Source: an uncultured Tenacibaculum sp.
Lineage (GTDB): Bacteria; Bacteroidota; Bacteroidia; Flavobacteriales; Flavobacteriaceae
Reading direction: 5' to 3'
NCBI GenBank assembly: GCA_947493285.1
Contig: CANLQH010000002.1
Location: forward strand, 450,062-514,061
Length of the DNA: 64,000 nt
Shown here piece by piece: positions 12,331 to 52,586 of this stretch (position 1 is its first letter; the number at the start of each line of letters is the position of its first letter). Below the pieces are notes generated by a model. That model was not told the DNA's origin and did not search any database. It saw only the letters and a program-made list of their open reading frames with translations. The translations under genes were made by a program, and so were the position numbers.

Positions 12331-12401
12331 ACCATTTATACATAAAATCAAACCATTTACACAAAAATAGATTTTAAAAATATTTTTTAACCTCATATTT
12401 G
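12331..12401 (+). promoter_or_regulatory. LytTR-type direct-repeat operator and -7 promoter element (unit A)
   Basis: ACCATTTATAC (12331) and ACCATTTACAC (12352), 21-bp period; CATATTTG at 12394, 42 bp after the second box. Confidence 0.75.
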
Positions 12402-12405
12402 CAGT

Positions 12406-12495
12406 ATAATACACAAGGGGATCATATTGATAAATTGGGGGATTAATCAATAATGACAAAATTTAAAAGACATCGTTATATAACGATGTCTTTTT
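12406..12495 (+). ncRNA. Candidate G-loop sRNA copy A
   Basis: 57-nt core identical to copy B; AAGGGGAT plus hairpin with TGGGGG loop; terminator AAAAGACATCGTT/AACGATGTCTTTTT at 12465-12495. Confidence 0.7.
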
Positions 12496-12528
12496 ATTTA
12501 TAACAAAATTACTTCTACCCTTTAATTT

Positions 12529-12599
12529 ACCATTTATACAAAAAATACTACCAACTATACATAACCATTTTTACCAAGTCTTTATTTATTACATATTTG
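12529..12599 (+). promoter_or_regulatory. LytTR-type direct-repeat operator and -7 promoter element (unit B)
   Basis: ACCATTTATAC (12529) and ACCAACTATAC (12550), 21-bp period; CATATTTG at 12592, again 42 bp after the second box. Confidence 0.72.
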
Positions 12600-12603
12600 T
12601 AGC

Positions 12604-12694
12604 ATAATACACAAGGGGATCATATTGATAAATTGGGGGATTAATCAATAATGACAAAATCAAAAAAAGCATTACATAGCGTAATGCTTTTTTT
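12604..12694 (+). ncRNA. Candidate G-loop sRNA copy B
   Basis: 57-nt core 12604-12660 identical to 12406-12462; different terminator AAAAAAAGCATTAC/GTAATGCTTTTTTT at 12662-12694. Confidence 0.7.
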
Positions 12695-12731
12695 ATGCAA
12701 CAATTTAAAATAAAAACTTTTTGATATACAA

Positions 12732-12762
12732 AAAAGCTCAAACGTTAAACGTTTGAGCTTTT
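12732..12762 (-). terminator. rplU-rpmA terminator
   Basis: AAAAGCTCAAACG/CGTTTGAGCTTTT inverted repeat downstream of rpmA. Confidence 0.8.
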
Positions 12763-12785
12763 AATCTATCTAATCAATTAGTTTC

Positions 12786-13046
12786 TTAAGCCTCGAATGG
12801 AGTTACTGAAACGTATGATTTGTTGTCTCTTTTCTTTCTGAATTCAACTACACCATCAACCTTAGCATGTAAAGTATGATCTTTCCCCATATAAACATTT
12901 TCACCTGGGTTGTGAGTTGTTCCTCTTTGACGAACGATAATGTTACCTGCAATAGCAGCTTGTCCTCCAAAAATCTTTACTCCTAGTCGTTTCGATTCTG
13001 ATTCTCTACCATTCTTCGAACTACCGACACCTTTTTTATGAGCCAT
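12786..13046 (-). CDS. rpmA: 50S ribosomal protein bL27
   Basis: [24 protein letters not shown]. Confidence 0.98.
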
Positions 13047-13068
13047 CTCTCTAAGTTTTTAAAGTTAA

Positions 13069-13554
13069 TTATTTGCTTAACGCTTCAATTAATTCAGCTT
13101 TCTTTAAAGAAGTGTATCCTTTAATACCTGCTTCTTTAGCTGCAGTTTTTAATTCTGCAACAGTCATTGAACTTAAATCAGTCGCTTCTGCTTTTGGTTC
13201 AGCTTTAGGAGCTTCTTTCTTAGCAGCTGCCTTTTTAGCACCTGAAACAGAAATTCCTTCAATTTGAATTTCAGTTAAATACTGTCTATGTCCATTTTTC
13301 TTTTTGTAACCTTTTCTTCTTTTTTTCTTGAAAACGATTACTTTATCACCTTTTAAGTGACCTAATACCTTTGCAGTTACTCCTGCACCTGCTATAGCTG
13401 GGGCGCCAATAGTTACGTTACCTTTATCTTCAACAAGCATTACATTATCAAAAGTTACTTTTGATCCTTCTGCCTCTTGTAAACGGTGTACGTATACTTT
13501 TTGGTCTTTTGCTACTTTAAATTGCTGCCCTGCTATCTCTACGATTGCGTACAT
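13069..13554 (-). CDS. rplU: 50S ribosomal protein bL21 with C-terminal Rho-N-like helical extension
   Basis: [29 protein letters not shown]; Ala/Lys linker then [34 protein letters not shown]. Confidence 0.96.
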
Positions 13555-13761
13555 ACTTTTTGTTTTGCGTTATACTTTATACACTTTCTTAGTGAAAATG
13601 CGGATGCAAATATACGAGTTTTTCAACAACAAACAACCTACAGTTCAGAAAATTACTTACTCTCTTATAAATTTTAAATATTTTTTCACTCATAAACGTA
13701 ACGAATGAGTTAATTTCACGTCAGATATATCAAAATCAGTTAAAAACTAAAAAATTTATTA

Positions 13762-51298: not shown

Positions 51299-51968
51299 AC
51301 AAACTAAAATACTTCTAGTTGATGACCATCAATTAATTATTGAAGGTATTCTATCGTTTTTAAAAGACATTGATAATTTAAAAATTGAAACTGTTAATTC
51401 TTGCGATGAAGCTTTTTCAAAAATAAAAACGAGTATTCACGACAATCCTTTTCATATTGTTTTTACCGATTTAAGTTTTGATAATAATAATGATAATGTT
51501 GTTTTAGATGGAGGTGAAGCTTTAATAAAAGCCATTCAAAAAGAAGAAATTGATATTAAAACTGGTGTAATTACTGGGCATTCAGAAATTAACAGAGTAT
51601 TTAATGTAATTAACAACCTAAACCCTTCTGCTTACATTTTAAAAGGTAATTGTAGTACTGACGAATTAACCTTTGCAATTCAAAAAATGTTAAAGGGTGA
51701 AGTGTATTACACGCACGAAATTCATCAAAAACTCTTAAAAAGAGCTTTGGTAGAAATCCAAATGGATGAAGTAGCTATTCAAATTTTAAAAGAGTTACCT
51801 AAGCATGCTAAAATTTCAAATTTAGAAGGTTCGGTTAAAAAAAGAGACGGTTCTTTAGTTAAAGTACGGGCTATAGAAAGTAAATTAGCAAAGCTTCGTA
51901 CCGACTTACAAGCAAATAACAATACCGATTTAGTACTAAAGGCCAAGGAGCTAGGAATTATAGATTGA
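51291..51968 (+). CDS. NarL/FixJ-type response regulator (REC plus atypical LuxR-like HTH)
   Basis: ILLVDDHQLIIEG, IVFTDLSF, YILKG; C-terminal RAIESKLAKLRTDL..NNNTDLVLKAKELGII. Confidence 0.9.
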   Translation: MLEQTKILLVDDHQLIIEGILSFLKDIDNLKIETVNSCDEAFSKIKTSIHDNPFHIVFTDLSFDNNNDNVVLDGGEALIKAIQKEEIDIKTGVITGHSEINRVFNVINNLNPSAYILKGNCSTDELTFAIQKMLKGEVYYTHEIHQKLLKRALVEIQMDEVAIQILKELPKHAKISNLEGSVKKRDGSLVKVRAIESKLAKLRTDLQANNNTDLVLKAKELGIID

Positions 51969-51973
51969 TTTTT

Positions 51974-52038
51974 GCGGAAATCCACACTTTTTTATGCGGA
52001 AATCCCGTTTTATAGTATTAAATCACATAATATCTTTG
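51974..52038 (+). promoter_or_regulatory. Operator pair and -7 promoter (unit 1)
   Basis: GCGGAAATCC at 51974 and 51996 (22-bp period); TATCTTTG at 52031, 35 bp after the second box. Confidence 0.78.
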
Positions 52039-52042
52039 CCTC

Positions 52043-52127
52043 AGAATTCAACTACTCTTGGGGAAAATTCTGAAAAAAGAAGAGAAATAAAATAAACCTT
52101 TTAGGCATATGCTTAAAAGGTTTATTT
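52043..52127 (+). ncRNA. Candidate G-loop sRNA 1
   Basis: AGAATT/AATTCT stem enclosing TGGGGA (GGGGA at 52060-52064); terminator hairpin 52090-52127. Confidence 0.62.
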
Positions 52128-52150
52128 ATTTTATAAAAAGAATACTCTTC

Positions 52151-52215
52151 GCGGAAATCCACCCTTTTTTCAGCGGATATCCCCTTTTTAAACCTAAAGC
52201 TCTAACATATATTTG
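52151..52215 (+). promoter_or_regulatory. Operator pair and -7 promoter (unit 2)
   Basis: GCGGAAATCC (52151) and GCGGATATCC (52173), 22-bp period; TATATTTG at 52208, 35 bp after the second box. Confidence 0.78.
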
Positions 52216-52219
52216 TAGT

Positions 52220-52296
52220 ATCAATTTTCGTTCTACAATGAAAAAGGATATTTAAGGGGAAAAATTAACCTTCTAGAAATTCTAGAAGGTTTTTTT
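52220..52296 (+). ncRNA. Candidate G-motif sRNA 2
   Basis: 5' hairpin 52225-52244; TAAGGGGA at 52253-52260; terminator AACCTTCTAGA/TCTAGAAGGTT plus T-tract at 52267-52296. Confidence 0.62.
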
Positions 52297-52316
52297 ATTT
52301 ATAACATTTTATAAAT

Positions 52317-52381
52317 TCGGAAAATCACACTTTTTTCAGCGGAAATCCCCTTTTTAAATCTAAACTTCTAACATACATTTG
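52317..52381 (+). promoter_or_regulatory. Operator pair and -7 promoter (unit 3)
   Basis: Degenerate TCGGAAAATC (52317) and GCGGAAATCC (52339), 22-bp period; TACATTTG at 52374, 35 bp after the second box. Confidence 0.75.
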
Positions 52382-52385
52382 TAAT

Positions 52386-52586
52386 GTTCTTTTGAACAAA
52401 ACATTAAGGGGAATTTAAAAACGTAAAAAAATGGGGAAATTTTTACTTACAAAAACTACTAAGGGGATTAATAGTTTTTTTTCAGCTTTAGCTGAGTATG
52501 GAAAAGGAGCTAGTTATGCTTTAAGACACTAAGCTAAACTAACCAACAAAAATGTAAACCTTCTAGAAAATCTAGAAGGTTTTTTT
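52386..52586 (+). ncRNA. Candidate dual-function RNA 3 (three GGGGA motifs plus small ORF)
   Basis: GGGGA at 52408, 52433 and 52463, the last two in stem-loops; terminator 52556-52586 near-identical to that of unit 2. Confidence 0.58.
52431..52532 (+). CDS. 33-aa peptide inside unit 3 (not in ORF track)
   Basis: MGKFLLTKTTKGINSFFSALAEYGKGASYALRH; ATG preceded by an A-run. Confidence 0.55.
   Translation: MGKFLLTKTTKGINSFFSALAEYGKGASYALRH

Follow-up and report, generated by a model that had tools for sequence, protein, structure and literature searches.

The window analysed here, a stretch of 64,000 nucleotides (nt) of contig CANLQH010000002.1 from an uncultured Tenacibaculum sp., holds two two-component systems, each made up of a TPR-containing sensor kinase (HK1, HK2) and a response regulator (RR1, RR2), and both kept across the genus Tenacibaculum. 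Two small transcription units lie in tandem beside RR1 (locus 1) and three beside RR2 (locus 2). Four of these five units are non-coding and the fifth encodes a protein of 33 amino acids. Comparison with orthologous loci indicates that these are genuine RNA genes, conserved and linked with two-component systems. The non-coding ones sort into three unrelated families: family A adjoins the LytTR-type regulator RR1, and types I and II adjoin RR2, which is of the NarL type. The assignment to Tenacibaculum agrees with RR1 being 99% identical to the LytTR regulator of T. pelagium S7007. The start sites of all units given below were deduced by the -7 box rule.

9567..11483, minus strand: HK1, sensor kinase (Pfam TPR_12, 4e-35, and His_kinase PF06580, 4e-19, LytS-type; hydropathy)
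11485..12219, minus strand: RR1, LytTR-family response regulator of 244 amino acids (Pfam Response_reg and LytTR)
12237-12244, minus strand: -7 box of RR1 itself, TACATTTG
12331..12363, plus strand: LytTR-type repeat pair A (ACCATTTATACA, 9 nt, ACCATTTACACA), kept in loci L001-L015 and in other genera
12394..12401, plus strand: -7 box of RNA A1, CATATTTG, start deduced near 12408, position kept in orthologues
12408..12499, plus strand: family A RNA, copy 1, ~90 nt (fold -22.9 kcal/mol, z -5.4; covariance model R1, 101.6 bits)
12529..12561, plus strand: LytTR-type repeat pair B
12592..12599, plus strand: -7 box of RNA A2, CATATTTG, start deduced near 12606
12606..12697, plus strand: family A RNA, copy 2 (fold z -6.4; R1, 103 bits)
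49430..51298, plus strand: HK2, sensor kinase with TPR and a HisKA_3/HATPase_c core
51291..51968, plus strand: RR2, NarL/LuxR-type response regulator of 225 amino acids with a divergent C-terminal helix-turn-helix
51974..52005, plus strand: RR2-type repeat pair 1 (GCGGAAATCC, 12 nt, GCGGAAATCC), with -7 box TATCTTTG at 52031-52038
52045..52135, plus strand: type I RNA, unit 1 (fold z -7.4; homologous units; covariation in the distant set)
52151..52182, plus strand: RR2-type repeat pair 2, with -7 box TATATTTG at 52208-52215
52222..52298, plus strand: type II RNA, unit 2 (fold z -4.1)
52317..52348, plus strand: RR2-type repeat pair 3, with -7 box TACATTTG at 52374-52381
52388..52589, plus strand: unit 3 mRNA, with leader motif AAGGGGAAUU at 52406-52415 and terminator at 52556-52582
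52431-52532, plus strand: open reading frame (ORF) of 33 amino acids in unit 3 (MGKFLLTKTTKGINSFFSALAEYGKGASYALRH), with conserved length, start and C-terminus

The five units are built alike, in the window and in orthologues, each with a pair of direct repeats, a Bacteroidota -7 box, a short predicted transcript and an intrinsic terminator. The pairs of locus 1, at 12331 and 12529, consist of ACCATTTAYACA twice with a 9-nt spacer and a period of 21 nt, and those of locus 2, at 51974, 52151 and 52317, of GCGGAAATCC twice with a 12-nt spacer and a period of 22 nt; a half-site scan of the whole 64 kb with mismatches allowed found such pairs at the five units only. From the end of the proximal half-site to the G of the -7 box the distance is 38 nt in each of the two units of locus 1 and 33 nt in each of the three units of locus 2, and terminator-like hairpins are enriched at both places (four against 0.2 expected at locus 1, five against 0.3 expected at locus 2). 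A repeat period of 21 nt is the known binding geometry of LytTR regulators (AgrA, ComE), and units carrying a repeat pair of their own beside their two-component system look like direct targets of the regulators. The original prediction, which had described units of operator pair, TAnnTTTG promoter and terminator, was right about the architecture, but the locus-1 box CATATTTG is one mismatch off TAnnTTTG. At the sequence level, each unit has the promoter and intrinsic terminator of its own that are expected of a small RNA gene, and family A, type I and type II are free of coding potential while unit 3 is not.

The motif that had been proposed to unite the units is a run of G's. Of the 13 GGGGA on the plus strand of the 64 kb, nine are inside the units, all nine exactly where they had been reported. 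Nevertheless, the units are not five G-loop RNAs, one of them being the mRNA of a small protein, and the placement of the motif in hairpin loops applies to the second motif of the locus-1 RNAs, whereas the 5' motif of these RNAs and that of unit 2 fall in a single-stranded linker and the pairing of unit 1 is ambiguous. Likewise, the 10-mer GGGGATTAAT does occur exactly three times, at the places named, but the third copy (52463) is regarded as a coincidence because it lies in codons of the 33-amino-acid ORF and is not conserved in orthologues. One common family for all five units was also considered and rejected, the locus-1 model having no match in the window, locus 2 included, apart from the two copies of locus 1.

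Both kinases had been predicted to carry periplasmic TPR sensors, and hydropathy and domain order bear this out: each has a hydrophobic, signal-like N-terminus, TPR repeats, one membrane helix (residues 393-416 in HK1 and 395-417 in HK2) and then the kinase core. Because of the signal-like N-terminus and the lone membrane helix between the TPRs and the kinase core, the TPR domains are extracytoplasmic and face the periplasm. The true start of HK2 is probably the ATG at 49451. Of the proposed regulator classes, LytTR is confirmed for RR1 by its Pfam match, and NarL is supported for RR2 by alignment with VraR. RR1 orthologues have 244 amino acids throughout Tenacibaculum. For RR2 the receiver domain (Response_reg) is the sole match in Pfam; residues 5-219 align with NarL-family VraR (7e-6) and residues 4-224 with PRK15369, and these full-length alignments lend support to a NarL/LuxR fold.

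Family A RNA consists of a 5' single-stranded AAGGGGA tail, the hairpin UCAUAUUGAUAAAU-UGGGGG-AUUAAUCAAUAAUGA with four G's in its loop, a spacer and a terminator. In copy 1 the single-stranded motif occupies 12415-12421, the hairpin 12424-12452 with its GGGG loop at 12437-12441, and the terminator 12465-12494; copy 2 has the same 5' part and a different terminator hairpin (12661-12695), and both copies form a 198-nt tandem direct repeat with 81% identity. All 15 close Tenacibaculum loci have family A, in one or two copies, in the interval from RR1 to rpmA, and in their alignment the hairpin and its loop are nearly invariant within the genus while the terminator sequence drifts yet always pairs. 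Relatives in other genera follow the same kind of repeat pair. Related forms were found in 20 Psychroserpens/Gelidibacter-type loci and in at least two Polaribacter loci (L033, L042). In Psychroserpens, Gelidibacter, Algicola and Aquaticitalea the RNA forms two hairpins plus a terminator; the G-run occupies the loop of the first hairpin (AGAGUGAUCGUGGGGAUUCACU), and the second (UGAUUAAAUGCUAUUAAUCA) has a stem like that of the Tenacibaculum hairpin. In the two Polaribacter loci GGGG sits in the loop of a UUGAUU...AAUCAA hairpin. Looser variants after the repeat pair are those of L037, with GGGGG in the loop of a different hairpin, and L067, with only GGG. The Tenacibaculum covariance model matches L033, L042, L037 and L067 beside RR1 with borderline E values of 0.017-0.57, and model R1 found nothing else of note in 625 kb. 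By regular expression such an RNA is present in 37 of the 80 RR1 orthologue loci, co-occurrence of RNAs and kinase systems being judged at regulator-anchored loci only.

All 21 Tenacibaculum-type and all 18 Psychroserpens-type RNAs contain GGGG (39/39), which has a background of 0.67 per kb per strand in all fetched DNA, and three quarters or more of the run is unpaired in 35 of 38 Tenacibaculum-type and 18 of 19 Psychroserpens-type runs. Across several genera, nothing in the LytTR-linked RNA is as well conserved by this comparison as the unpaired G-run, which is also the most conserved element of type II (below). The small ORFs of the locus-1 RNAs (MINWGINQ, MTK...) were examined as an alternative and rejected, no frame surviving comparison: the MINWGINQ frame meets a stop in L002, after three codons, and in L003, is shifted in L004, L011 and L013, and the downstream ATG is absent in L007 and L010.

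Other arrangements occur after the RR1-type repeat pair. In Kordia, Maribacter and other Polaribacter the pair is followed by a gene for a signal-peptide protein. Upstream of RR1 in the Kordia loci L031, L043, L044, L050, L056, L058 and L059, the LytTR pair stands ahead of a secreted-protein gene, and in the leader of the Kordia gene a hairpin loop presents ACCCCAAAUUUUGAU, which is approximately the complement of the G-loop found in the Tenacibaculum RNA. The RR1 locus of T. maritimum (L160) is without family A RNA, and a gene of the thiol-activated cytolysin family (PF01289; L160:297-1793) is located upstream of RR1, at the position that the small RNA has in other Tenacibaculum species.

The orthologous RR2 loci comprise metagenome contigs and named genomes. 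A type I RNA lies directly after RR2 in most usable metagenome contigs (L081-L141) and in all seven named-genome loci, and type I is the ancestral RR2-linked unit. Its general build is a 5' hairpin, then UGGGRA with AAUU after it, then the purine tract GAAAAAGAAAAAG, and at the end a terminator of AACCUUUC... type; unit 1 of the window represents it with a 5' hairpin, UUGGGGAA (52058-52065), the purine tract GAAAAAAGAAGAGAAA and a terminator at 52090-52127. In a distant set of type I RNAs a second hairpin follows, with a loop that is usually UUAGGGG (about 10 of 19). The distant type I hairpin, set by hand before the pairs were counted, is 82.5% paired with compensatory changes in five of its nine pairs, values that none of 500 shuffles reached; this covariation is the strongest evidence for structured RNAs. 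RNAalifold on MAFFT alignments recovered terminators only. Two of the RNA families have, on these predictions, structure or covariation support.

Type II is confined to Tenacibaculum-like genomes and consists of a 5' hairpin, a single-stranded AUUUARGGGGAWWA and a terminator; in unit 2 the single-stranded AUUUAAGGGGAAAAA spans 52249-52264 and the terminator 52267-52291. GGGG is present in 16 of 16 distinct copies, and 16 of 18 runs are unpaired. The candidate ORFs of types I and II vary between species in frame, length and start codon, or are absent. The expectation that the G-motifs would be conserved and exposed in orthologous loci is borne out for family A and type II, less so for type I, where the motif is weakened to UGGGRA, and fails for unit 3, whose codon motifs are not conserved. 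Among relatives the RR2 array ranges from one to nine units, for example:

This window: type I, type II, ORF
L153 (T. finnmarkense): type I, type I
L088: type I, type II, type I, type II
L155 (T. aiptasiae): type I, seven of type II, ORF (nine tandem units, L155:4676-6560)

The nine-unit array of T. aiptasiae shows that expansion proceeds by tandem duplication. Such growth and shrinkage of the array (L155, L082, L088) and promoter regions as well conserved as the RNA bodies would also suit units that matter as DNA, either as decoy or reservoir sites or as leftovers of tandem duplication, with transcripts that are functionless by-products. We regard this as very unlikely, since the invariant blocks and the structure are found within the transcribed segments (the family A hairpin and the covarying type I hairpin), which is unexpected for a by-product, and every unit has its own terminator despite differing terminator sequences.

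Two further observations concern these arrays. In L100 and L103, the first 140 nt after RR2 contain seven C's (AAUCCCCCCCAGC) where relatives have the G-run, so that the polarity of the motif is reversed. In T. jejuense (L154:6538-8189) and SZ-18 (L159:4993-6678) a second pair of LytTR regulator and His_kinase adjoins the RR2 array.

Unit 3 is rejected as a small RNA on account of its conserved 33-amino-acid ORF. In every unit-bearing locus this ORF has an MG(K/I) start and a GKGA(G/S)YA(L/I)(R/K)(H/N) end (pattern MGKxLL...GKGA[GS]YALRH), and its changes fall mostly on third codon positions (18 of the 27 positions at which the window and L081 differ). It is present in four clusters at 50% identity, all of 33 amino acids, among 1.8 billion representative proteins and is confined to a narrow clade, and family and name look-ups returned neither a family match nor a name for it. 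GGGGA at 52433 corresponds to Met-Gly-Lys codons and at 52463 to Lys-Gly-Ile codons, orthologues having GGA, GGC or GGT. The leader motif AAGGGGAAUU, placed 18-23 nt upstream of the ATG, is kept in most orthologues and reads AAAGGGAAAUU in T. tangerinum (L158). One could imagine from unit 3 that all five units encode tiny peptides, the G-runs being ribosome-binding or codon sequences, the more so as AAGGGG could pair with the 3' end of 16S rRNA through one G-U pair and some distant RR2-linked units start with ATG-GG... We give this hardly any credence: the ORFs of family A, type I and type II are inconsistent in frame, length or start codon, or are absent, the G-run in the leader of unit 3 is 18-23 nt from its ATG and too distant for a Shine-Dalgarno sequence, and Bacteroidota mostly disregard Shine-Dalgarno elements.

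None of these RNAs corresponds to a known family. At the gathering threshold, Rfam 15, including the small RNAs of Bacteroides and Flavo-1, matches only tRNA in the window, and permissive Rfam scans of both loci gave sub-threshold, unrelated matches only. The statement that nothing of this kind has been described in Flavobacteriaceae agrees with our full-text literature searches, in which no published account of two-component-linked small RNAs in Flavobacteriia or Tenacibaculum was found.

A candidate for what the G-runs might act on lies directly upstream of HK2, in the leader of a small gene.

49206..49218, plus strand: C-run UUUAGUCCCCCAC with a UCCCCC core at 49211-49216, ~30 nt upstream of the ATG of the Gly-rich ORF
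49248..49403, plus strand: Gly/Thr/Asp-rich ORF of 51 amino acids, directly upstream of HK2, with its own terminator hairpin at ~49418-49444
C-run site in L081 and L156: ACCCCCAUCCCC
C-run site in L083 and L084: AUCCCCCGYCCCC
C-run site in L155: AUCCCCCC
C-run site in L113: AUCCCCCGGG

Gly-rich ORFs of 36-51 amino acids occupy the same position in many orthologous Tenacibaculum-like loci, and neither a name nor a family match was obtained for them in family and name look-ups. The C-run is one of three CCCCC in the window and, when the RNA's own antisense is excluded, the best non-coding site in the window for the family A loop, with which it is predicted to form a duplex of 11 base pairs (-18.3 kcal/mol). 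With the consensus loop of Tenacibaculum, the values are about -14 to -15 kcal/mol for L156, L084 and L155 and -10.4 for L158. The site that ranked next for the family A loop, at 62708-62723 on the minus strand, was set aside as it is within coding sequence, and a duplex scan of four seeds against the 5' regions of 66 larger ORFs of the window revealed no outstanding target. We take the C-run as a candidate pairing target of the G-runs, partly conserved. In some orthologues an FPGG motif precedes a Gly/Asp-rich tail, which hints at a processed, exported peptide.

Based on these findings we consider it reasonably probable, and better supported than the alternatives, that each regulator directly activates the small genes adjacent to it, the products being one small protein and RNAs in which the exposed G-run is the working part, and that these RNAs pair with C-rich leaders. 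Once phosphorylated, each regulator would bind its repeat pair, the end of which lies 38 nt (LytTR) or 33 nt (NarL-type) upstream of the -7 box. Two copies of the ~90-nt family A RNA would then be the output of the LytTR system, and that of the NarL-type system a variable tandem array, made up in the window of a type I RNA, a type II RNA and the mRNA of the 33-amino-acid protein. In the build that the RNAs share, a 5' hairpin or tail, an unpaired G-run and an intrinsic terminator, the G-run would be the seed that pairs with C-rich or pyrimidine-rich mRNA leaders, as in known trans-acting small RNAs, and the leader C-run of the Gly-rich peptide gene, if it is such a target, would provide feedback or cross-talk between both systems. 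It is plausible that these are signal-controlled regulatory RNAs, a new example in a group with few known.

Base pairing with C-rich leaders is the most economical mechanism, and its main rival is that the RNAs act as protein decoys, their exposed G-runs titrating an RNA-binding protein, for example of the RRM type, as RsmY/Z and CsrB titrate RsmA/CsrA. RRM-type proteins stand in for Hfq and CsrA in Bacteroidota. A decoy would account for arrays of up to nine copies, as a copy number of 1 to 9 would give dose, for a short motif that is kept while the flanking sequence drifts, and for the recurrence of a similar motif in the three RNA families, unrelated as they are, and in the leader of the mRNA for the 33-amino-acid protein; moreover, RbpB of Bacteroides binds single-stranded parts of multicopy small RNAs (PMC11697453). 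We nevertheless judge it unlikely, although it comes ahead of the other alternatives: there are one or two G-runs per RNA where Csr/Rsm RNAs have many GGA motifs, no partner protein was identified and none is encoded beside either locus, and no G-rich motif was found in the RbpB paper, in whose text the term G-rich does not appear (PMC11697453).

Several observations weigh against the pairing of G-runs with C-rich leaders under regulator control, which we still prefer. The first G-run of family A is degraded or lost in four species, represented by L007 and L010 (GGGA in both), L012 (GAGGAAA) and L014. In about half of the RR1 orthologue loci a secreted-protein gene, and no RNA, follows the repeat pair. 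Only 7 of 13 Tenacibaculum-like type I copies have GGGG, often predicted to be paired, the motif being weakened to UGGGRA. The T. jejuense/SZ-18 group has no C-run and T. tangerinum a weak one; the C-run is also similar to the end of the RR2 half-site (ATCCCC) and may therefore be a DNA site. Both loci together are available from two genomes only. The search found no RNA runs with either locus of the window, and metatranscriptome contigs on the homologous locus L107 are long and flat or of low depth, span the 3' end of the regulator gene and the promoter, and are uninformative. As for the convergence of both systems on one effector, which had been proposed at the outset, it is unsupported, only a motif of 4-5 nt speaking for it.

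The layout of locus 1 recalls the agr system of Staphylococcus aureus (AgrC/AgrA, RNAIII), which also has a LytTR regulator and direct repeats of 21-nt period between the divergent promoters of operon and RNA. The same arrangement is found here, with RR1 on the minus strand, the RNAs on the plus strand and repeats of 21-nt period, and in both RNAIII and the present RNAs hairpin loops display a short homopolymer-like seed. The resemblance does not extend to an autoinducing peptide, as the RR1 operon consists of RR1-HK1 alone and has no agrB/agrD-like genes; its downstream neighbour, on the opposite strand, is a gene for a DinB-family polymerase (8488-9570). HK1, with its periplasmic TPR domain and single membrane helix, also differs from the polytopic peptide receptor AgrC. 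RNAIII has 514 nt and encodes delta-haemolysin, whereas the RNA here has ~90 nt, is duplicated and is non-coding, and the loops of RNAIII are C-rich and pair with Shine-Dalgarno sequences, in contrast to the G-rich loops described here.

As proposed here for RR2, a NarL-family regulator activates several redundant small RNAs in the GacS/GacA-RsmX/Y/Z and BarA/UvrY-CsrB/C systems, and these RNAs likewise have a G-containing motif in unpaired regions. However, Rsm/Csr RNAs contain many GGA motifs, typically at least five in loops, which bind CsrA/RsmA, while the RNAs here have one or two GGGG runs; the GacA box is palindromic, while the upstream site here is a direct repeat of 22-nt period; and, unlike those of Gac/Rsm, the RNA genes directly follow the regulator gene as a tandem array. 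Bacteroides, the only Bacteroidota examined in this respect, are without canonical CsrA and Hfq (PMC13370968). The CiaRH csRNAs of Streptococcus and the LuxO-controlled Qrr1-5 of Vibrio resemble the present arrays in comprising several short homologous RNAs, each with a promoter and a terminator. These csRNAs and Qrr RNAs are the main output of a two-component or phosphorelay system and show dosage redundancy. CiaR is of the OmpR type and LuxO of the sigma-54 NtrC type, regulator classes that differ from the LytTR and NarL types found here, the seeds of their RNAs are complementary to ribosome-binding sites, and Qrr RNAs need Hfq.

Within the phylum, the nearest precedents are the RNAs GibS/FopS, together with RbpB, and FimS as a TPR sensor. 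GibS and FopS of Bacteroides thetaiotaomicron are, like type II, multicopy RNAs of the same phylum with a single-stranded seed followed by a terminator hairpin. We know of no dedicated regulator of FopS, nor of a G-run seed described for it. FopS genes are scattered and have canonical promoters, while the RNAs here are in tandem beside regulators, and neither sequence nor model searches matched GibS/FopS to the RNAs of the window. GibS/FopS RNAs act near the start codons of their targets and bind the RRM protein RbpB (PMC11697453). FimS of the FimS/FimR system of Porphyromonas gingivalis is, like HK1 and HK2, a Bacteroidota kinase with a periplasmic TPR domain. FimR controls fimbrial genes, and to our knowledge no small-RNA output of FimS/FimR has been reported. 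Both kinases of the window have the FimS-type layout of TPRs between an N-terminal anchor and a single helix, followed by the kinase core, but their similarity to FimS is weak, with 25 and 53 bits against an equivalog cut-off of 600. The signal of FimS is unknown (PMC11053733).

The question of what the TPR-sensor kinases of Bacteroidota control, and how, can now be tested in culturable strains of Tenacibaculum, since three conserved, unannotated RNA families are at hand, each beside an obvious candidate regulator, and there are a defined motif to mutate and one concrete candidate target. Small-RNA regulation is poorly charted in Flavobacteriia, a class whose members are major degraders of marine algal matter and which includes fish pathogens. 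They appear to be without the usual RNA chaperones, which is shown for Bacteroides, and largely disregard Shine-Dalgarno sequences. If the G-run is indeed a seed, it would mirror the C-rich seeds that many Firmicutes RNAs have, and would offer a way into the question of how targets are chosen by base-pairing RNAs where mRNAs are without a purine tract for ribosome binding.

A more far-reaching proposal, which taken as a whole we consider improbable, is that locus 2 is a peptide-based cell-cell signalling circuit of marine Flavobacteriaceae, linked with the LytTR system by pairing of G-runs and C-run. In such a circuit, the Gly-rich pre-peptide would be exported and then sensed by the periplasmic TPR domain of HK2, RR2 would then fire the expandable array of G-run RNAs together with the 33-amino-acid protein as an effector peptide, and the G-runs of both systems' RNAs would pair with the C-run in the leader of the peptide gene. 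If true, this would amount to a closed feedback loop linking two systems, with an agr/Qrr-like logic made from other parts in a phylum without Hfq/CsrA.

Two minor features were noted next to locus 1. A perfect 15-bp hairpin at 12732-12762, between family A copy 2 and rpmA, looks like the terminator of the convergent rplU-rpmA operon, and ribosomal protein L21 (13069-13554) has a C-terminal tail of ~40 amino acids that matches Rho_N and SAP/HeH motifs (PF07498, 1.4e-9).

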